A stretch of 39,037 bases of DNA from a virus (taxonomy: Duplodnaviria; Heunggongvirae; Uroviricota; Caudoviricetes), in the IMG/VR virus record IMGVR_UViG_2529293063_000017; one strand, written 5' to 3'. The notes under the pieces are model-generated. The model was not told the origin of the DNA, did not search any database, and was given only the letters and a program-made list of their open reading frames with translations. The position numbers and the translations under genes were made by a program. Of this stretch, positions 5,139 through 17,124 are shown piece by piece (within the stretch, counting starts at the first letter, position 1; every line of letters starts with the position of its first letter).

Positions 5139-7946
5139 ATGACGGCAGAGTACATCAGGGACTGGCAACAACCGCGCCACGCAGTGGGGCGTGAAGGAAC
5201 GGGGATCCCCGCTCCTGAATCCGCGCTTTCCTCCTGGCTGGATGCCTACCGGGTAGAGAACGAGCGCTGCCAGGAAATGGCTGATGCGGCGTTCTCCGCA
5301 ACGCCGCTGGGCAACCTGATTAATAAAAGCCTGGACGCACAGGAAAAACAGGACAAAACCATCACACTGGCAGGAGACGCCAGAAAACAGGCACGCGGCG
5401 CGGTGGATGAAGCCATGGCTTCGCTGCGCCTGCTGCCGTCCTATCTGCGCGATCCGCTTATTCGCCACCTCTCCTTCCTGCGCAAAAAACAGGAAGCCGA
5501 TCGTCAGAAAGGCAAAAAGAGCTGGCAGGCTGAACGCTACGCGCGCGGAAACCTGCGCAAAATATTCGAACGTCTGGAGCGCACCGATCACCGCTGGCTG
5601 ACACAGGGTTATCGCTCCCTTGCCGGACGCGAACGCCTGGATGATTTGCTTTACCTGCCGCAGCTCAACCAGCACCAGATACAGACGCTGGCCACCATGA
5701 CGGCGGCGATGTTCAGCAGCACCTTCGAAAAACTCTGCGATGGCTTTGGCGCGACCGATGGCGAACTGACCATGGATGTAACGCTGAAGGCGTATCAGAT
5801 GCTGGCCCGCATGGCGTTACACCTGCACGCCATGCCGCCACATTACGAAGCTCTGAACAAGAGCGATCCGGATACGGAACTGTTACCGGGCGCAATCCTT
5901 CGCCTGACCTGTGCGGAATGGTGGAAACGCAAACTGTGGCTGTTACGTTGCGAGTGGCGGGAAGAACAACTCCGCGCCGCCTGTCTGGTTTCCAGAAAAA
6001 CATCGCCCTATCTGAGCCAGGACGCGTTAAGCGAGTTTCGCGCACAGCGCGAGAAAACACGCGATTTCCTGAAAAGTTTCATGCTGGAAAACGAAGACGG
6101 GTTCACGATTGATCTCGAGACAGTGTATTACGCGGGAGTAAGTAACCCGGTTCACCGTAAGGCAGAAATGATGGCCACCATGAAGGGGCTGGAACTTCTG
6201 GCCGAAGCCCGTGGCGACAAAGCGGTGTTTCTGACCATCACCTGCCCGTCAAAATACCACGCCACAACAGAGAACGGTCATCCGAATCCCAAATGGAACG
6301 GGGCCACCATGCGCGACTCCAGCGATTACCTGGTTAACACGTTTTTTGCGGCGGTCCGCAAGAAACTGAACCGCGACGGCCTGCGCTGGTATGGCATCCG
6401 CACGGTGGAGCCTCACCATGACGGCACCGTGCACTGGCATATGATGGTCTTTGCTCATCCGGAAGAAATCGACACCATTGTGTCCCACACCCGCGATATT
6501 GCCATTCAGGAAGATCGTCACGAGCTGGGTGATGATATTACCCCACGCTTTAAGGCGGAGTACGTCGACGGCTCAAAAGGCACGCCAACCAGCTACATCG
6601 CCACCTACATCGGAAAGAACCTGGACAGCCGCGCCGTAGATGGCATCGACCCGAAAACGGGCAAGCCACGCGTTGACCACGAAACCGGAAAATCAATGGC
6701 CGAGAGCGTGGAACGCGCCATCGGCTGGGCGCGCCTTCACCGTGTCCGCCAGTTCCAGTTCTTTGGTATCCCCTCCCGTCAGGTGTGGCGTGAACTCCGC
6801 CGCCTTGCCAGCCAGATGGCACGCAACCCGGAAGGCCCGCAACGGCTGAAGGATGACGCAATGGATGCGGTACTCGCTGCCGCTGATGCCGGATGTTTTG
6901 CCACCTACATAGAGAAACAGGGCGGCGTACTTGTTCCACGCCAAGACTACCTGATTCGCACCGCCTACGACCTCGCAGATGAGCTGAACGATTACGGCGA
7001 ACAGAGCGTACAGATTTACGGGATCTGGTCGCCGCTCATCGGGGAGTCTTCCCGCGTATGCACGCATCCGGATAACTGGAAGCTGGTAAGACGCAAACCG
7101 GAAGCGGAAGACAGCTCCCACGAAAATGGTTTTGACCTTCAGGGCGGCCCTGCCGCCCCTTGGACTCGTGGCAATAACTGTCCCCGTGTACAGGAAACGG
7201 ACAACAACGGGACAGAACAGCCGGAAGAACGGCCAGCACCGTGGCCGCAGCTTCCTGACGGCGTTGACGTGAATGAATGGATGCGCTCACTGAAACGGCA
7301 CGAACGCCGGGCGCTGATGCGTTCGCTGCGTGACAAACAGGCAAAAAACAGCAGTGATGAAATGCAGAACTGGACACAGAGCCGCAAACAGCCACAGCCT
7401 TTGCCTGATAACCACGAGTTACTCGCTAAAGAATGGCGGGAGTCTGCTGAATCTCTCGGCCTGCATATCGGTGAACAGCAGATGCAGCACCTGTTACGGG
7501 GCGGCAGTCTGTACGTTGACGGCAGCATCATTGCACCGCAGGGATTTGAAATTGTACGCAAACCGGATACCCGCCCGGACAGCCGAATCACGCAGCTCTG
7601 GCAACGCCTGAGTCGTAATCACGGCGTAAGCAGCACGGAGATCCGCCATAACCCGGTCGCCAGCTATCTGGAACAACTAGAGGCATCAGACCCTGAAGCC
7701 GCCGCACGCCTGGCATCCACACTTCAGCAAGACCAGAACACCATGAAAACACCAGTTACCGTACTTTCTGACATGCTGCGCGCCATCCGCGACGCAGAGC
7801 ACGCACAGAGAATCAGTGAAACCACTGAACGCGCCCGCCGCAAAGCAGACCTGCTGCGGGGTGGCCTGAGCAGTGGAAACAAAAAACAGACAAAAACGGG
7901 ATTCACAAATCCCGTAAATGAGCAAAAAACGCGCCGCGATATATGA
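5139..7946 (+). CDS. A: Replication initiation endonuclease (P2 gpA-like, rolling-circle)
   Basis: 935 aa; contains a ...VHWHMMVFAH... histidine motif and ...SYIATYIGKN... paired-tyrosine motif typical of gpA-family initiators; the C-terminal part is longer than I recall for P2 gpA. Confidence 0.9.
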   Translation: MTAEYIRDWQQPRHAVGREGTGIPAPESALSSWLDAYRVENERCQEMADAAFSATPLGNLINKSLDAQEKQDKTITLAGDARKQARGAVDEAMASLRLLPSYLRDPLIRHLSFLRKKQEADRQKGKKSWQAERYARGNLRKIFERLERTDHRWLTQGYRSLAGRERLDDLLYLPQLNQHQIQTLATMTAAMFSSTFEKLCDGFGATDGELTMDVTLKAYQMLARMALHLHAMPPHYEALNKSDPDTELLPGAILRLTCAEWWKRKLWLLRCEWREEQLRAACLVSRKTSPYLSQDALSEFRAQREKTRDFLKSFMLENEDGFTIDLETVYYAGVSNPVHRKAEMMATMKGLELLAEARGDKAVFLTITCPSKYHATTENGHPNPKWNGATMRDSSDYLVNTFFAAVRKKLNRDGLRWYGIRTVEPHHDGTVHWHMMVFAHPEEIDTIVSHTRDIAIQEDRHELGDDITPRFKAEYVDGSKGTPTSYIATYIGKNLDSRAVDGIDPKTGKPRVDHETGKSMAESVERAIGWARLHRVRQFQFFGIPSRQVWRELRRLASQMARNPEGPQRLKDDAMDAVLAAADAGCFATYIEKQGGVLVPRQDYLIRTAYDLADELNDYGEQSVQIYGIWSPLIGESSRVCTHPDNWKLVRRKPEAEDSSHENGFDLQGGPAAPWTRGNNCPRVQETDNNGTEQPEERPAPWPQLPDGVDVNEWMRSLKRHERRALMRSLRDKQAKNSSDEMQNWTQSRKQPQPLPDNHELLAKEWRESAESLGLHIGEQQMQHLLRGGSLYVDGSIIAPQGFEIVRKPDTRPDSRITQLWQRLSRNHGVSSTEIRHNPVASYLEQLEASDPEAAARLASTLQQDQNTMKTPVTVLSDMLRAIRDAEHAQRISETTERARRKADLLRGGLSSGNKKQTKTGFTNPVNEQKTRRDI

Positions 7947-8022: not shown

Positions 8023-8982
8023 ATGAAAATTTGTATCGACGACGGCTCCACCAACATCAAGCTGGCATGGACTGAGAACGGCGAATGCCGCAACGCCATC
8101 AGCCCGAACAGCTTCAAGTCGGAATGGTCTGCGCCGTTCGGTGTCACGCAGCCCGCGAACTACATGCTTGATGGCGTGCGCTATGGTTTTGATCCGGTCA
8201 GCGATCGCTTTGTCCAGACGACCGACACGCAATACCAGTACAGCGATGTGAATGTCATTGCCATTCATCACGCGCTGGTCAAATCAGGCATCACGCCACA
8301 GGAAGTGGATGTGGTTGTCACCCTGCCACTGAGCGAGTATTTCGACACAAACGCACAGCCGGATATGACCAACATCAACCGCAAAAAAGCGAACGTCATG
8401 CGCCCGGTGGAGTACCAGAACGGTGAGGCATTCACTATCCGTAACGTGCGGGTTATGCCTGAATCCATTCCGGCTGGCTTTAAGGCACTGGCTAACATGA
8501 GTCCGTTTGAATCCCTGCTGATTGTGGATTTAGGCGGAACCACGCTGGATGTGGCAAAGGTTCAGGGGCAACTGGCAGGTATCAGCCAGGTGTTTTGCGA
8601 TCCACACGTAGGCGTTTCTCTGATGGCCGATGCCGTACTGTCGGTGATGGCCACTAACGGTATGCGCACCAGTCACCACATCGCCAATACCATTATCGAA
8701 CATCGCCATGATGAAGCCTGGCTGCGCCAGCACATCCACAATGACGCGCATTACGCCAGCCTGATGGCGGTTATTCGTGAAAAGGAAGAAACACTGAAAC
8801 AACGCGTGATCCGCGCGCTGGCGGTTTTTTCGGGTTACGGGCGGGTGATGGTTGTCGGTGGCGGGGCGGAGATTGTGGCACCCGCTATCCGCGAAGCCTG
8901 CGGAGTTAATGCGACTTTCATCGCGGACGGGGTGCCACAGTTTGCTCTGGTTAATGGGCTGTACGCAATGGACAAGGAGTAA
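8023..8982 (+). CDS. parM: ParM/StbA-like actin-type segregation ATPase
   Basis: 319 aa; N-terminus MKICIDDGSTNIKLAW...ISPNSFKSEW...QYSDVNVIAIHHAL closely matches the plasmid R1 ParM N-terminal region as I recall it. Confidence 0.8.
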   Translation: MKICIDDGSTNIKLAWTENGECRNAISPNSFKSEWSAPFGVTQPANYMLDGVRYGFDPVSDRFVQTTDTQYQYSDVNVIAIHHALVKSGITPQEVDVVVTLPLSEYFDTNAQPDMTNINRKKANVMRPVEYQNGEAFTIRNVRVMPESIPAGFKALANMSPFESLLIVDLGGTTLDVAKVQGQLAGISQVFCDPHVGVSLMADAVLSVMATNGMRTSHHIANTIIEHRHDEAWLRQHIHNDAHYASLMAVIREKEETLKQRVIRALAVFSGYGRVMVVGGGAEIVAPAIREACGVNATFIADGVPQFALVNGLYAMDKE

Positions 8983-8987
8983 ACCAA

Positions 8988-9301
8988 TGACGACATCAAC
9001 CAGACGGATAAGTTTCTATCTGAAGCCAGACGCCGTCAAGAGTGAACAAGAGGCGTGCAATTACCTCGATAGCCTGCCAGCCTCCGAACGCAGCCGCGCG
9101 CAACGCGCGGCCTTTCTGGCCGGACTGGCACTCATAAAACGCAACCCAGCATTTGCCTACTGGATGGCCGAATGGCCAGAGGATAACCTCCCCTTCAATA
9201 CCATTAGCACCAAGGAAACATACCAAGATAATCCGCCTAGCGGAATTGAATGCAATTTTTATAAAATAAAAAAGAATATTCAGACCTTATTCCCTGAATA
9301 A
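8988..9301 (+). CDS. parR: ParR/StbB-like centromere-binding adaptor
   Basis: ATG at 8988 with RBS aaggag; MTTSTRRISFYLKPD...LDSLPASERSRAQRAAFLAGLAL resembles R1 ParR (...RRTIAFKLNPD...LDSIPQGERSRLNRAALTAGLAL); sits downstream of parM as in parMRC loci. Confidence 0.75.
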
Positions 9302-9385: not shown

Positions 9386-10228
9386 TCATGATGAAATTGC
9401 CGAAGTTTTTTTATCGTGCTGAAGTACCGCAAATGCCATCAAAACCTCAAGAGAATAGCGGCGATAATACTTAACAAAACCATAATAAAATACTCGAGAT
9501 GCAGCAAGAAAAAACAAGAAAAGAGGACCAAAAGGTAACAATCTGATATTTATATCTATTAAGTAAGATAGAGGGGCTAGACACATAATCAACCAGACTG
9601 AGGCGAGAAAAACGAATGTAATGTTTCTACAAAAACCATATAGAGCAACATAGTTTTGTATTTTCAACTGATGATTTTTCGAATGTTCATACACATAATG
9701 ATAAGCAAGACGAAAAAGATCTCCCCTCAACCCTTTGCGTCGATACAACGTAGAAACAGAAAAATTATTTATATAGCCATTTCGTATTTGCGGCCAAAAG
9801 GCCTTAATAAGTATAGGATGTAGTGTGGTTTTATGACACTCAGCTTTATCAAGAATTGATACAGGAAACAAAAAAACTCTACGAATAAAATTAAATATCT
9901 GGAATCCTGTACCACGGCGTTTTATTTTCAGGGGGTTTTTCGGGGAAAACAGATAAGTCGAAGGATATCCAAGCTTACTGTTCATGTATTTTTCAATTAA
10001 ACAGGATGATAGAATAGATATGAAGTGACCTAAAATATATGATAGAACGATCAATGTCACATACATAAACACACTTATTATTTCTTTATATTTCAAGATG
10101 TGGTTTAGAATACTCTCGACATAACCAGGGTTAATTTCAATAGAAAACAAAAAAAGGATAAACAGGAATAATCCACCTGGAATTAGATACCCCAAAAAGT
10201 CATAAAATGAAAACGGATTCTGTGTCAC
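9386..10228 (-). CDS. Polytopic membrane protein (about 4 TM segments), unknown family; accessory cargo
   Basis: 280 aa; hydrophobic helices near the N-terminus and C-terminus flanking a basic soluble segment; markedly AT-rich DNA compared with the phage backbone. Confidence 0.7.
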   Translation of the reverse strand: MTQNPFSFYDFLGYLIPGGLFLFILFLFSIEINPGYVESILNHILKYKEIISVFMYVTLIVLSYILGHFISILSSCLIEKYMNSKLGYPSTYLFSPKNPLKIKRRGTGFQIFNFIRRVFLFPVSILDKAECHKTTLHPILIKAFWPQIRNGYINNFSVSTLYRRKGLRGDLFRLAYHYVYEHSKNHQLKIQNYVALYGFCRNITFVFLASVWLIMCLAPLSYLIDINIRLLPFGPLFLFFLAASRVFYYGFVKYYRRYSLEVLMAFAVLQHDKKTSAISS

Positions 10229-10267
10229 ACTTCCCCCTGTGCTACTTGTAAATTAAAGAGTCAAACA

Positions 10268-10765
10268 TTATTTGTTTTTCCGTAAAGGATTAGCTTTCCA
10301 TCTTCTTACTAACCATTCGAATTCTTGATATGTAGTATCCGAATTAATGCTTTCTCTGATTGCTTTAATTAATGGCTCGGCAATATCATATGTCTCTACA
10401 ACTGTTGTGTAAGATGTTCTTTTTATCATTTTTTCATCATAAATACCTTCACGAATACTTACAGCAACTCGCTCGTAAAAATTTAAAATATATTGAAATT
10501 TTCGACGCTCGGCCATTTCCTCATCTGTTATTGTACAACCATCACAAGGAAAAACATAAGAACGAAATGATTTGCCTGAACGATGCACTTGTTTCAGGGT
10601 ATGCAATGACTCTATATATTGCATATCTTGCCGACTCTCAAAAAGAAAGTTAGCCGTTTGAGTTTTCTTTGCGGTACGCACATTGTAGATAATGGTTCCA
10701 ATGGCAACCAAAACGCCAAGCAGAACAATAGCATTGCTGATGATTTGTAGTGTTATTGGGTTCAT
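10268..10765 (-). CDS. Single-pass membrane-anchored protein (N-terminal TM plus about 130-aa cytoplasmic domain), unknown family; accessory cargo
   Basis: 165 aa; N-terminal ITLQIISNAIVLLGVLVAIGTIIY helix; AT-rich; co-oriented immediately upstream of 9386-10228, so a likely two-gene operon. Confidence 0.7.
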   Translation of the reverse strand: MNPITLQIISNAIVLLGVLVAIGTIIYNVRTAKKTQTANFLFESRQDMQYIESLHTLKQVHRSGKSFRSYVFPCDGCTITDEEMAERRKFQYILNFYERVAVSIREGIYDEKMIKRTSYTTVVETYDIAEPLIKAIRESINSDTTYQEFEWLVRRWKANPLRKNK

Positions 10766-10786
10766 CCTATTTCATCCATAAAAAAG

Positions 10787-10812
10787 GCGGGGAGCAAATC
10801 CCCGCCTCATTA
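10787..10812. other. GC-rich palindrome; terminator or cos-proximal element
   Basis: aaaaaaggcgggga-gcaaa-tccccgcctc; partial resemblance to the G-rich P2/186 cohesive-end sequence as I recall it; lies in the about 650-bp non-coding stretch next to Q where P2 carries cos. Confidence 0.3.
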
Positions 10813-10961
10813 GAGGTCAACGTAGCTTAGAAACCATCAAATTCATCATACATTTTTTTCATATCAACCCCCTCATAGAAATCATAACCACGTTTTGTGG
10901 TTTTTGTGACGCATAAACTACATCAAAGGCAAGCCACGGTCAAATATATAGGCATGCTTAC

Positions 10962-10988
10962 CTGCACAAAAGTGCACAAATTTGCACA
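10962..10988. repeat. Three tgcacaa direct repeats at exact 10-bp spacing (helically phased)
   Basis: tgcacaa at 10962, 10972 and 10982; upstream of the membrane-protein cassette promoter region and within the presumed cos-proximal non-coding DNA. Confidence 0.4.
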
Positions 10989-11413
10989 ATTTTTTTGAAC
11001 GACTTTTTGCCCTTCCGGCCCGCGTGGCGGCTGGAGCCGTCAAGGATCCGTGCATGCACAAAAAAACGCGCTTTTTCTGCGCGCAGGTGACGGGGGAACA
11101 GCCCGCGTTTCAGGGGGTAAATAGCATCCCCTGAACGATGTCGCAGCGACACAACAGAATGGCTGTATTTCTCACGCTGAGCGTGAAGAATACGTGAGGG
11201 ATTCTGATTTGATGGGGTGAAAGGTAAGGCCGTCAAAATCGCACTGAGGCGGCGAGAACATGCAGTCAACGCGGTGGGATTGCGTAAGAGTCTGACCGTC
11301 GATGGTGGCGATAAACTGGAAGGCGTCGTGAAATTATCTGACTGATACAGGAGCTGGAGAGTCGGGGCATAAATTTTTTATGCCCCGGCGAAGCAGCAGA
11401 CAAGCGAAGCGCG

Positions 11414-12460
11414 TCAGGATGTGGGCAGGGTGTCTAACAGTGCGTAAGGGTTAAAGCGGATCACCTCTTCGCCAAGCCAGTCATTGATGTGCTTCATGGC
11501 CTCCATGACGGGCATCAGCTCGTTAATTGCGTAAACCCGCGCGGCCTTCTCCACATCACCAAACGCACTTTTTTCACCCGGCATCGCCCCCATCAGTTGC
11601 GGCGGAACGCGGTGCGCAGCCAGCACATCATCACGGGATGCCGCCTTAACATTCATGAACTCATCCTTTGCGGTGATCTGCTGGAACGGCAAAATTTGCA
11701 CCCCCTCTTTGCCCCCGTTGGGCGCATGAATGAGCACGTTTTTAAACGCACCACCACCACGCGCACCCTGTAGCGTTTCTTTCAGGGAGTCCATGCTTTC
11801 GCGGTTTACCTGCGCTGCACCGATGTAGATGATGCACCCGGCGTGGGATCCGTTGTCGTAATACAGTTTTCTGAACATGTCCGCCGAATGAGACAGGCTG
11901 GCCGAGAGTAATGCGCCGAGATATTCCGGCATGCCGTAGATTTCCTGGTTAATGTCCGGATTCATCAGGTGGCACACTTTGCCTGGGCGAAACTGAAACG
12001 CATCCTTGCCATCCTGCACATACCACCATGATTCAAGATCGCTTCCGCGTCGCATGTATTTCGCCAGGGCGTGCCGTAATTTAAGCGGTTCGCCGAGCAT
12101 ATTGCTTCGAAGCTCAAGGAATGCGTTACCGAACACAAACCAGTCCAGCGCCAGCGCCGAGAAATCCTGCCGGGAAAGCAGCGGGTGCGGGATGTAGCAA
12201 CCGAGCAATACATTGCGCTTAAAGTAAAGCGCAGACTGATGCCAGGACGTTTGCCGGGCGGCTCTTGCCAGACCGTACCAGTCCACCGGGGTTTCATACC
12301 ACCGCCCGTTATCAGCACAGTACATATTGTCCAGCAGGTCATGCCCGGTCAGGCGATAAGGACCATCAAATGTGAATGCACTGAGCGATGATTCTTTCCT
12401 GAGCGCATCAGCGAGATCAATGCGTGAACTCATGCGCACTTTTTTATTTTTTCTGCTCAT
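11414..12460 (-). CDS. Q: Portal (capsid vertex) protein, gpQ-like
   Basis: 348 aa; size and position (leftward operon with the terminase, divergent from O) match P2 Q. Confidence 0.8.
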   Translation of the reverse strand: MSRKNKKVRMSSRIDLADALRKESSLSAFTFDGPYRLTGHDLLDNMYCADNGRWYETPVDWYGLARAARQTSWHQSALYFKRNVLLGCYIPHPLLSRQDFSALALDWFVFGNAFLELRSNMLGEPLKLRHALAKYMRRGSDLESWWYVQDGKDAFQFRPGKVCHLMNPDINQEIYGMPEYLGALLSASLSHSADMFRKLYYDNGSHAGCIIYIGAAQVNRESMDSLKETLQGARGGGAFKNVLIHAPNGGKEGVQILPFQQITAKDEFMNVKAASRDDVLAAHRVPPQLMGAMPGEKSAFGDVEKAARVYAINELMPVMEAMKHINDWLGEEVIRFNPYALLDTLPTS

Positions 12461-14211
12461 CAGAACTCCATAACCGTGAAACGCTCGTTTTCTCCTTCGC
12501 CGCCAATTGGTTCGTTAATGACAGCAAGCATGGTTGCCCACGCAAGGTCGCCGTGGCTGATCCCCCTCGCGCGGTCCGTTTCGTAAGTGATAAAGCCGCC
12601 CGGTGTTTTCACCTTACGCACGGCGTTAAAGGCCGCGACCAGCTCGCGTTCGGCGCGATCGTATTCCCACCGCCCGGCACGCATTATTTGCAGCATTTTC
12701 AGTACCAGCGACCGTTTTGATGACAGCGTGAAGGTGTACGGAATAGCGGCAGGGAAAAACCGTTTCACTATCTGATAAACAGCCTCCCCGTTCCCGCCCG
12801 TCACATCAATGCCGATGTGTTCCACGTTGTAGCGACACGTGAACTCTTCAATGACTCTGGCCTGTTCTTCAAACTCCAGCCCCTGAACGCGTCGCGTCTC
12901 CACCGTTCGAAAACGGCCACCAGGAACAGACGGAGGAACCACCACGGACACAGCGCCGCTGTCGCCGTTGCCACTGCTGCCGTTTGCGTCATACCCAATC
13001 CATACCGGACGATTCCCCATCGGGCGGGGAGCAAAAGGTTTCCAGTCTTTCCAGTCGTCGTATCCGTCAACGCCACAGCCAATCAGGATATTCAGGTTAA
13101 ATGCCGATTCCCCTTCGCGGACAAACTCACACATATAGAGATTGAGGAACTCGTCTTCGGTGTTTTCATCACGAATTTCATCAATATCGGTGTGTTTCCA
13201 GCCGTGATTAACCACATCTTCCAGCGTGACAATTTGCCGCCACGTCCGGTCAGGGCAGATAAGCCCGTTATGCAGCGTTTTCCAGTCCACAGAAAAACGC
13301 TGGCGTTTATGCGAGGCCTTTTTCTCGTTCCAGCGGTCGCCGTTCCAGTAGGCGTATGCCTCGTGCGTTTCGGTGGATGGCGTGGAGAAGTAGGTGCGCC
13401 GCAGTCCGCTGAGGGTTGCCATAGCGCCAGCCACCTTGCGCAGTTCAGCAAAGCGACTGACCCAGAAAAATTCATCAAAATAAAAATTGCCCGTATAGGA
13501 CTGTGCCGACGCAGCAGAAGTGCCGAGAAAATGCAGCTCTGCGCCGTTGGAGAGGATGATTTTATCGCCCCCTTTCAGCTCCACATCAACTTCAGCCGCG
13601 GCCTTCTGAATAATGCTTTTAAACTGGAACGCCTGACGACGCGACGCAGACAAAAAAATCTGGTTACGCTGGTAAGGTTGCGCCACATCGTCACGCAGCG
13701 CCATCAGCAGTGCTTCCTGTGCAAAATACCAGGTCGCCCCAATCTGTCGGGATTTCAGGATCATCCTGTTACGTATCCCGGCTTCCCTGCAAAGGGTCAG
13801 GGAGTCAAACCAGCCCCGCTGATGCCACTCCAGCCTGCTGATGATTTTTTCCCGCAGTGCGGCAATCTGTTCCGGCGTGAAATGATTTTTGAGTTTTTTC
13901 GCCCGGCCTTTCTTTCCTGTGGCCGTCGCATCCGGCTGGCCATCATGCAGTTTTTTAAGCTGCCGGGTCAGCAGGTCTATTTCCTTGAAGTCACCACCTG
14001 TTTTATTCTGTTTTTCAGTGAGCTGGATGAGGCGCGCATCGATGGACTGCGTGACACGCTGCACGGGTGGCGTTTCATCCCACTGGTCGCGTTTTTTCCA
14101 CGCATAAATCGTGTTCGGGTTTATTCCCATCAGACGTGATATTTCTGCGGGCGGATAACCCTGCCAGTAAAGTTGCCGCGCACGCTGGCGCACAAAAGCG
14201 TCCTGAATCAT
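12460..14211 (-). CDS. P: Terminase large (ATPase) subunit, gpP-like
   Basis: 583 aa; N-terminal HTH-like segment then a large ATPase/nuclease body; size and position match P2 P. Confidence 0.85.
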   Translation of the reverse strand: MIQDAFVRQRARQLYWQGYPPAEISRLMGINPNTIYAWKKRDQWDETPPVQRVTQSIDARLIQLTEKQNKTGGDFKEIDLLTRQLKKLHDGQPDATATGKKGRAKKLKNHFTPEQIAALREKIISRLEWHQRGWFDSLTLCREAGIRNRMILKSRQIGATWYFAQEALLMALRDDVAQPYQRNQIFLSASRRQAFQFKSIIQKAAAEVDVELKGGDKIILSNGAELHFLGTSAASAQSYTGNFYFDEFFWVSRFAELRKVAGAMATLSGLRRTYFSTPSTETHEAYAYWNGDRWNEKKASHKRQRFSVDWKTLHNGLICPDRTWRQIVTLEDVVNHGWKHTDIDEIRDENTEDEFLNLYMCEFVREGESAFNLNILIGCGVDGYDDWKDWKPFAPRPMGNRPVWIGYDANGSSGNGDSGAVSVVVPPSVPGGRFRTVETRRVQGLEFEEQARVIEEFTCRYNVEHIGIDVTGGNGEAVYQIVKRFFPAAIPYTFTLSSKRSLVLKMLQIMRAGRWEYDRAERELVAAFNAVRKVKTPGGFITYETDRARGISHGDLAWATMLAVINEPIGGEGENERFTVMEF

Positions 14212-16323: not shown

Positions 16324-17124
16324 ATGATTACTCCTGCACAGCAACACTGGCAGAACGTGATGGCACAGCGCGCAGGCCGGGCGAATGAAGGCGTGGACCA
16401 CGCCGCGCGTACCGCGCATGAAGAGGTGCTGTATCGTCTGCGTCTGGCACAGGCCCGGCTTAAGGGCGTACAGGCCAGAAGCGCGAAAGCCGCCATCAAA
16501 AAAGAGTTGTTGCCGGACTTTTCCGGCTGGATTGAGGGAACGCTGGAGGCTGACGGTGGGCAGCAGGATGAAGTGATTGCCACGCTGATGGTGTGGGCGA
16601 TTGACTGCGGCGATCTTCCGCTGGCGCTGCGTATTGGTGCATATGTGGTCCGTCACAACCTCATCATGCCGGATAACTTTGGCCGTACTGCTGCCACAGT
16701 GCTGACCGAAGAAATCTGCAATCCGGTACTGACGCAGGCCGGGACGGATGCCGACGCGGATTTGTCCGCCTTTATCGAACCACTGGACACCCTCCGGGAG
16801 ATTGTCACCGACCAGGACATGCCGGACGAAGTGCGCGCCAAATTATGCAAGGCGTGTGCCTTTGCCCGTCGTGGCCTGACCGATGCAGACAGCATGGCCC
16901 TGTCACTGAAGCTGCTGCGCGAAGCGATGCACCTGAACCCGAACGCAGGTGTGAAACGCGAGATTGCAACCCTTTCCCGCGCCCTGAAGAAAGCCGATTC
17001 CGCAGCCGCACCAGAAGACGCCAGCGCACAGCAGGCGCAGGACGAAAGCAGCAAAAGTAAAAAGACAACGCGGAAGCCTGCAACACGAAAAACCACCGCG
17101 ACGCAGAAGGCGAAGCGCGGTTAA
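16324..17124 (+). CDS. M: Terminase small/endonuclease subunit, gpM-like
   Basis: 266 aa; ...KKELLPDFSGWIEGTLEADGGQQDEVIATLMVWAIDCGDLPLALRIGAYVVRHNLIMP... resembles P2 gpM. Confidence 0.85.
   Translation: MITPAQQHWQNVMAQRAGRANEGVDHAARTAHEEVLYRLRLAQARLKGVQARSAKAAIKKELLPDFSGWIEGTLEADGGQQDEVIATLMVWAIDCGDLPLALRIGAYVVRHNLIMPDNFGRTAATVLTEEICNPVLTQAGTDADADLSAFIEPLDTLREIVTDQDMPDEVRAKLCKACAFARRGLTDADSMALSLKLLREAMHLNPNAGVKREIATLSRALKKADSAAAPEDASAQQAQDESSKSKKTTRKPATRKTTATQKAKRG

Follow-up and report, generated by a model that had tools for sequence, protein, structure and literature searches.

A probable P2-family cos site of divergent sequence in the non-coding gap beside the portal gene of a P88-like prophage

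The stretch of viral DNA analysed here at its full length of 39,037 nucleotides (nt) (IMG/VR record IMGVR_UViG_2529293063_000017; hereafter the window) is, judged by its sequence, a P2-family prophage of the P88 type (Xuanwuvirus, Peduoviridae). A BLASTN search with positions 10700-11480 returned vB_EcoM-569R5, P88, P88_4B11, and others at 94-97% identity, and the gene order of the window is that of P2. Its left part carries the replication gene A (5139-7946), a parM gene (8023-8982), and an AT-rich cargo island (9386-10765; GC content of about 0.33) composed of an open reading frame (ORF) of 280 amino acids (aa) and a gene for a DUF4760 protein. A gap at 10766-11413 separates this cargo from the genes of the portal protein Q (gpQ homologue; 11414-12460, minus strand) and the large terminase subunit P (gpP homologue; 12460-14211, minus strand). 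The genes of the scaffold O and the capsid N follow in the order, before that of the small terminase subunit M (gpM homologue; 16324-17124, plus strand). The gap is the subject of this report. Its central part, from 10963 to about 11120 and thus downstream of the portal stop codon, is very probably the cos (cohesive-end) site of the prophage, a divergent copy of a well-known signal.

The gap consists of three parts: a leader belonging to the cargo (10766-10962), the cos element (10963 to about 11120), and a non-coding spacer (11121-11413). Positions 10940-11130 are present in 1,140 of 5,426 complete Escherichia coli genomes, and among these 1,140 genomes the homology shared by prophages with different cargo begins at 10962/10963, the first base of R1, the leftmost of the repeats described below. 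Positions 10720-10962 are present in only 299 E. coli genomes, nearly all at an identity of at least 99% and always together with the DUF4760 gene. Because of this common starting point of homology and the difference between 299 and 1,140 genomes, we conclude that 10766-10962 travels with the cargo and that the DNA from 10963 rightwards travels with the phage. An initial annotation, made from the sequence alone, had proposed the entire gap of about 650 bp as a probable cos or packaging region containing phased repeats and palindromes. The placement of a divergent P2-family cos beside the portal gene stands, and the repeats are part of it, but the conserved element accounts for only about 160 of the 650 bp. 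The gap had also been described as lacking a convincing ORF on either strand, and we agree, a very small exception being an 11-codon mini-ORF in the cargo leader: its five ORFs of 42-103 aa matched no Pfam or PHROG family, and no codon-position signal was detected.

At the left edge of the conserved element stand three TGCACAA words (R1-R3; 10963-10989, plus strand), which we propose to be recognition repeats. They start at 10963, 10973, and 10983, i.e., at the exact 10-bp phase noticed in the initial annotation. In 100 shuffles of the window, a triple phased in this way was matched in none, with two mismatches allowed, and four of the eight TGCACAA words of the window sit within 100 bp. R3 is followed by a tract of seven T residues (10990-10996) and then by a spacer of variable sequence and fixed length (10990-11054 with the T tract, plus strand); sought by eye in the T tract and the spacer, the IHF consensus gave no clean match. 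The spacer leads to a fourth word, R4 (TGCACAAAAAAA; 11055-11066, plus strand), which lies close to the predicted cut and is the most conserved block of the element. A short GC inverted repeat, ACGCGC/GCGCGC (11066-11084), ending in a conserved GCGCGC, connects R4 with the G-rich core CAGGTGACGGGGGAACAGCCCGCG (11084-11107, plus strand), the predicted site of staggered nicking. Neither the fourth TGCACAA word at 11055 nor this G-rich core at about 11084-11107 had been noticed in the initial annotation. The ACGCGC/GCGCGC repeat was considered as a minus-strand terminator and rejected, its fold being no better than that of shuffled sequences (z = -0.49) and no hairpin being visible by eye in most genera. 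At the right edge lies an 8-bp inverted repeat, TTCAGGGG/CCCCTGAA (11109-11135, z = -3.5), whose arms at 11109-11116 and 11128-11135 are a few bases away from where the initial annotation had put them. The conserved GGGG(G) block at the end of the shared element overlaps the left arm of this repeat, and the right arm occurs in the P88 lineage only.

The records of P2, 186, and P4 start at the mapped cohesive end. After the ends of each record were joined, alignment of these cos junctions with the window by MAFFT, a comparison suggested in the initial annotation, recovered one layout of words and core in all four: three words at 10- to 12-bp phase, a fourth word, a GC element, and a G-rich core. 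Measured from the cut, the TGCAT words are found at -123, -111, -101, and -29 in P2 and at -124, -111, -101, and -29 in 186 and P4; measured from 11084, the words of the window are at -121, -111, -101, and -29. PSP3 and the Ralstonia phage RSA1 have the same word layout, and R4 occupies the position held at -29 by TGCATTAAAA in P2, 186, P4, PSP3, and RSA1. The criterion of three phased words was derived here from P2, 186, P4, PSP3, and RSA1 and may not be a published one.

Further likenesses to the cos sites of P2, 186, PSP3, and P4 are a start-to-start distance of 72 bp from R3 to R4, which was found in 39 of 41 TGCACAA-family sequences, a G run at +8 that is followed by GCGC, and a copy in an otherwise non-homologous satellite. 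The position is alike as well, between a variable accessory region and the portal stop codon; in the P2 and 186 records, cos is flanked by the accessory genes on one side and by the Q stop codon on the other. The core aligns to GGCGAGGCGGGGAAAGCAC of P2, 186, and P4, and in both P2 and the window the G run begins 8 nt to the right of the reference point, which is the cut in the former and 11084 in the latter. The differences concern sequence and one distance. The word is TGCACAA in the window and TGCAT(T/G) in P2, 186, PSP3, and P4. The 19-nt 5' cohesive end of these four is GGCGAGGCGGGGAAAGCAC or GGCGTGGCGGGGAAAGCAT, whereas the core of the window, CAGGTGACGGGGGAACAGC, matches the P2 end at only 11-13 of 19 positions. 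The gpM and gpP homologues are 36% and 44% identical to their P2 counterparts, and the core is about 310 bp from the portal stop codon, compared with 186 bp from the cut in P2.

From the P2 register, which puts the equivalent of the top-strand nick at 11084 when 29 bp are counted from R4, the predicted cohesive end is CAGGTGACGGGGGAACAGC, at about 11084-11102 (core at about 11084-11104), which agrees with the P2 19-mer at 11 of 19 positions. The best sequence match is obtained with a shift of 2 nt, in which case the end would be GGTGACGGGGGAACAGCCC (11086-11104), identical to P2 at 13 of 19 positions. The initial annotation, unable to match the 19-nt end exactly, had allowed for a divergent packaging site, and this is what the core looks like. 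The chances that the top-strand nick falls within 2 nt of 11084 appear to us roughly even.

Repeated words beside a G-rich cohesive end also occur in another member of the Peduoviridae, the Pseudomonas phage phiCTX (Citexvirus), whose record annotates cosR and the repeat families R3-R6 around cos. One such word, TGCAGAAA, is placed some 28 bp to the left of its cut. Unlike in the window, the phiCTX word is of a GCAG type and the cohesive end has 21 nt; a scan for exact words in the last 300 bp of the record revealed no phased triple.

With the portal protein as query, 52 loci were collected from bacterial contigs representing one genome per species and searched by nhmmer with positions 10956-11125 of the window. 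The element was found in 39 of the 52 portal loci, always downstream of the portal stop codon, in more than 15 genera: Salmonella, Citrobacter, Edwardsiella, Trabulsiella, Serratia, Symbiopectobacterium, Kluyvera, Enterobacter, Kosakonia, Brenneria, Pantoea, Mixta, Pectobacterium, Klebsiella, Yokenella, Izhakiella, Erwinia, and Morganella. Nearly every match extended from 10962 to about 11120, and portal identity among the element-bearing loci went down to 54%. Mean pairwise identity, calculated by block over 40 distinct sequences from more than 15 genera, was 0.30 in the left flank, 0.80 in R1-R3, 0.50 in the spacer, 0.88 in R4, 0.47 in the linker between R4 and core, 0.81 in GCGCGC, 0.78 in the core, and 0.40 beyond about 11118. 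The spacer has a length of 56 bp in 39 of these 40 sequences and the linker a length of 12 bp in all 40. Such a combination of fixed length and free sequence is expected if proteins bound to the words must stay in register with the cut.

The same words are combined with two types of core, that of the window, GGTGA-CGGGGGAAC-AGCCC, and a more P2-like one, GGCGAGGCGGGGGAGCAAG, which is intermediate between the window core and P2 and was found in relatives from Morganella, Brenneria, Klebsiella, and Kosakonia. In both types the G run begins 37 nt after R4. Exact matches to the core in IMG/VR had the portal gene on the expected side in 104 of 120 cases, with 14 more lying too near the end of the locus. 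Among the RefSeq E. coli matches listed, the site is unannotated, the feature column giving "none" for 59 of 60 and "hypothetical protein" for the remaining one.

P88 and P88_4B11 carry the element at 94-95% identity. P88 (PMC5285337) and P88_4B11 (PMC6969025) were both obtained as infectious phages, and their viability lends indirect support to a packaging function of the element. At the equivalent of window positions 11097-11108, P88_4B11 (LR595891) reads GGTGACGGGGGGACAG-GTTTCAGG, which corresponds to an A>G change and a 5-nt deletion (11103-11107). A search of IMG/VR for this deletion allele gave no exact match, and misassembly at the G run may account for the allele; if real, it would bound the rightward extent of the essential core.

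One of the weaker E. coli matches, an 81% identical copy of 10962-11122, is carried not by a prophage but by a satellite-like island of about 12.7 kb located between gcd and hpt in the E. coli ST131 genome 2019_APHA (NZ_CP051609.1, 3782594-3795098). The island encodes an integrase, a helix-turn-helix (HTH) regulator, an Icd-like protein, an 889-aa toprim primase, a second integrase, an Ogr/Delta-like zinc finger protein, and MazEF, and it has a field of GGTTACA iterons. A further product of the island, 423 aa long, is a homologue of the major capsid protein of the P2 family (PF05125, E = 3e-73); it is 35% identical to the gpN of the prophage, has an N-terminal extension of about 120 aa, and adjoins a 236-aa protein without a family match. 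No portal, terminase, sid, psu, or partition gene is annotated in the island. The four words, their spacings, and the core (GGTGACGGGGGAACAGCAC) are kept, while the middle 28 bp of the spacer and all DNA beyond about 11122 are unrelated to the window. When 821 bp of the island were compared with the E. coli genomes, the whole stretch (cos-delta) was present in 52 of 5,426, and about 400 further genomes, with P88-like prophages, matched only the cos part of about 165 bp.

In P4 and P2, cos has been described as the sole homologous region (PMC9122126). The island resembles this pair in that, within the 821-bp stretch examined, cos is all that it shares with the phage. We take this sharing of cos only, as read from the sequences, to be the strongest functional evidence short of experiment. 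The island differs from P4 in lacking annotated sid and psu and in having the capsid homologue, the Icd-like protein, and the second integrase. With its capsid homologue, the island is reminiscent less of P4 than of SaPIbov5 with its capsid homologue Ccm (PMC6893505). It is tempting to speculate, although we would put this at somewhat below an even chance, that words at fixed distances (TGCACAA here, TGCAT in P2, 186, and P4, and the GCAG type in phiCTX) constitute a specificity code of the small terminase by which Peduoviridae and satellites alike fall into groups of compatible packaging, and that the TGCACAA group has its own satellite family with a diverged capsid gene. If so, this satellite family would be an apparently undescribed one, and the capsid gene of the island would replace Sid and Psu, presumably building or resizing capsids of its own.

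How the element might work can be outlined by analogy with P2. In P2, the terminase formed by gpM and gpP recognises cos on replicated circular DNA and introduces staggered nicks into its G-rich core, after which the DNA enters the procapsid by way of the gpQ portal; monomeric circles, not concatemers, are reported to be the substrate of P2 packaging. In the P88-like prophage, after induction, the gpM homologue (PF05944), the presumed reader of the repeats, and the gpP homologue, the presumed cos nuclease and motor, would recognise the element on replicated phage DNA. We infer that the four TGCACAA words are recognition sites to which the small subunit would bind. R1-R3 would lie on one face of the helix and R4 seven helical turns away, 29 bp from the cut, and with this geometry a protein bound at both would bend or wrap the spacer of fixed length. 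With the DNA so bent, the nuclease might be positioned over the G-rich core, 29 bp rightwards from R4. From near 11084 on, it would cut the two strands in a staggered way, about 19 nt apart, leaving 5' cohesive ends, and the DNA would be pumped through the portal encoded alongside. The change of word from TGCAT to TGCACAA goes together with a gpM that has retained only 36% identity to that of P2, consistent with a changed specificity.

The lambda cos is organised as cosQ-cosN-cosB, with R sites for the small terminase and a bend introduced by IHF, so that the nicking site is flanked by repeated binding sites. The logic proposed for the window is the same, but there is no sequence homology and the terminase belongs to a different family. 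Moreover, the R sites of lambda are on the side of the terminase genes, whereas in the window the cut lies between the repeats and the portal and terminase genes.

Several points weigh against the assignment of the element as cos or against parts of the model. No phage record or IMG/VR contig was found to start or end at the core, and a literature search for GGTGACGGGGG as a reported cohesive end returned only unrelated primer sequences. Given the two possible alignments of the core with the P2 19-mer, in register and shifted by 2 nt, the predicted nick positions are uncertain by a few bases, and the 5-nt deletion of P88_4B11 lies just to the right of the predicted overhang. Finally, the "55-bp core" of the P2/P4 cos (Ziermann and Calendar 1990), in the form in which it is cited in PMC3931495 and PMC5694545, would include R4 and not R1-R3. 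Compared with the 55-bp core as so cited, positions 11055-11110 have the same order of elements and the same spacings, with a word at -29, a GC element, the cohesive end, and GCGC.

The cut could also lie elsewhere in the gap, and two places come into question. The linear record of P88_4B11 (LR595891) ends with ...GAACGAATTTT and starts with TGCCCTTCC..., equivalent to 11007|11008 of the window. Its authors removed repeats at the contig ends and set nt 1 "relative to reference genomes" (PMC6969025). Since nt 1 was thus chosen after repeat trimming, 11007|11008 is not a physical end, and we rejected this boundary on the strength of the authors' own methods. The other place is cGCGTGGCGGctggAGCcg (11021-11039), in which GCGTGGCGG (11022-11030) has nine contiguous bases in common with the 186 end GGCGTGGCGGGGAAAGCAT. 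As a cohesive end, GCGTGGCGG was rejected as well: the satellite and most other genera have unrelated sequence in its place, while the core at 11084-11107 is kept. Both places fall within or beside 11008-11054, a part of the spacer with only 50% identity across genera, and when the window is set in register with the mapped cuts of P2, 186, and P4, its own cut comes to lie at about 11084. A cut at either place is, in our estimation, very unlikely. Just as unlikely is a reading of the TGCACAA repeats as operators or promoter elements of the cargo promoter, or as the centromere of the ParM/ParR system. The transcript start of old-tin in P2 lies just left of the equivalent repeats, a conserved TTGAC(C/A) is found 23 bp left of R1, the prophage encodes ParM, and partition centromeres are made of phased direct repeats. 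However, the repeats persist beside every kind of cargo on their left, whichever way its genes are oriented, and they are carried by the satellite island, which has no annotated partition gene and different neighbours, and by P4. The equivalent words of P2, 186, and PSP3 stand at the same distances from the cut, the cut and not any promoter being the point of reference. In addition, the repeats are 2 kb downstream of parM, whereas ParMRC centromeres are normally upstream of it. It is the persistence of the words with any cargo, and their occurrence in the island and P4, that makes an operator or centromere role unlikely.

That the right part of the gap, 11121-11413, encodes an unannotated small protein or a small RNA we regard as very improbable. 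Some records do annotate hypothetical proteins there, such as the 42-aa ORF of LR595891 that corresponds to 11217-11345 and others in P88, and the segment has strong hairpins and is about 95% conserved within the P88 lineage. This sequence conservation does not extend across genera, in which only a strand skew and a GC hairpin near the portal stop codon recur, and matches to Pfam or PHROG were lacking. Over 65 distinct homologues of 11108-11416, the variable sites were distributed over the three codon positions as 22/19/16 and 19/13/20 for the two longest ORFs; this even distribution, without an excess at the third position, argues against a coding signal in 11108-11416, and the 42-aa ORF is broken in 8 of the 65 homologues. 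No Rfam family reached its gathering score; the best match was to gyrA RNA at 22.2 bits as against 45, and the rest were weak hairpin or terminator matches at a permissive threshold.

What recurs in the right part is thus better described as a spacer and a hairpin. The non-coding spacer at 11136-11362 is G-rich on the plus strand, with a GC skew of +0.2 to +0.3, and the equivalent segment of about 30 other loci and genera without an insertion has an excess of G over C of 0.17-0.45. It is followed at 11363-11387 by a perfect 11-bp hairpin on the minus strand, CGGGGCATAAA/TTTATGCCCCG, which begins 26 nt past the portal stop codon and has a folding energy of -17.7 kcal/mol (z = -4.0) but no U tract. 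The hairpin past the Q stop, like the 8-bp inverted repeat, is present within a few bases of where the initial annotation had it, and both had been listed there among the features of a cos region. With the exception of the left arm of the inverted repeat, which touches the conserved GGGGG block, they are lineage-specific. The hairpin is also outside the element shared with the satellite, the match to which ends at about 11122. The terminators tQ of P2 and tW of 186 are annotated at the same relative position, and the hairpin may mark the transcript end of the P-Q late operon or act as a message stabiliser.

Between this hairpin and the portal stop codon (about 11417), vB_EcoM-569R5 has a 174-aa gene (FIG00643476, hypothetical) with its own terminator, which replaces the last portal codons. 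Several loci from other genera contain 500-900 bp of extra DNA at the same place, bringing the segment to lengths of 793-1136 bp. In view of the 569R5 gene and this extra DNA, the portal side of the gap appears to accept insertions and to be a second, smaller insertion spot.

To the left of the cos element, 10766-10962 is taken up by the putative promoter, the leader, and the predicted terminator of the DUF4760 operon, whose transcription runs in the direction leading away from cos. The initial annotation had pointed to a GC-rich palindrome in this part with a partial resemblance to the P2/186 cohesive end. The palindrome exists (10785-10807), but the resemblance is not meaningful, because the stretch is absent from most related prophages. 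Its arms, AGGCGGGGA/TCCCCGCCT (10785-10793 and 10799-10807), belong to a predicted rho-independent terminator of textbook form on the minus strand (10784-10808) that lies in the cargo leader and is not part of cos. It has a 10-bp stem and a 5-nt loop followed by UUUUUUAU, giving six U residues, and folds with -19.4 kcal/mol (z = -4.2). In the copy of E. coli no107, which is about 85% identical, the stem GGGGA/TCCCC has become GAGA/TCTC by compensatory G>A and C>T changes. The start codon of the DUF4760 gene (10765) lies 18 nt past the terminator.

Upstream of the terminator, a mini-ORF of 11 codons (MKKMYDEFDGF*; 10861-10826, minus strand) preceded by a strong Shine-Dalgarno sequence, GAGGGGG, is a candidate leader peptide of the cargo operon. 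E. coli no107 keeps it as MKKVFDEFDGF*, the DNA upstream diverging and containing a 57-bp insertion, and a helix between the Shine-Dalgarno region and the bases immediately preceding the terminator is preserved by two changes in this copy. Promoter-like hexamers on the minus strand, GTCACA-N18-TATGAT at 10910-10881 and a conserved TTGACC at 10940-10935, are consensus matches only, and the number of such hexamers in the region is no higher than in shuffles. Altogether, the leader looks like an attenuator-type leader or a tiny stand-alone transcription unit of the cargo.

The cargo itself (9386-10765, about 33% GC) encodes a 280-aa protein (PHROG 12528, no Pfam match) and a 165-aa membrane-anchored DUF4760 protein (PHROG 2284). 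The same cargo is nearly clonal, with an identity of at least 99%, in about 280 E. coli genomes, whereas in E. coli no107 the DUF4760 gene stands by itself. The accessory neighbourhood beside cos is a known defence-gene hotspot of P2-like phages (PMC9122126), and because of this location the cargo is a candidate anti-phage system. Between gene A and the cargo, a plasmid partition module of the ParM/ParR type occupies 8023-9301 (ParM matching PF06406 and PF21523 with E = 1e-82 and 6e-69), which is also found in P88-like relatives. Modules of this type are not usual in integrating P2-like phages, and the one found here may hint at an episomal phase. A P88-like prophage region with a portal 99% identical to that of the window was also detected in NZ_JBQPOM010000071.1, labelled as Vagococcus sp. 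WN89Y, a member of the Firmicutes; this assembly is probably contaminated or mislabelled.

The kind of element described here is a known one, the expected packaging site of a P2-like phage. What is new is modest: a P88-type cos with a different word and core, which we did not find in the literature searched, and the explicit four-word layout at fixed distances common to P2, 186, PSP3, RSA1, P4, and the P88 lineage. About one in five complete E. coli genomes carries the element, and its definition would mark precisely where the P2-type defence-gene hotspot ends on the right and would allow prediction of satellites that can be mobilised by a P88-like helper. A cassette of about 160 bp may also be of use for cosmid-like vectors or transducing particles in the P88-like group. 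The layout of fixed spacings shared with P2, 186, and P4 offers a concrete, testable model of how P2-family terminases might read cos.

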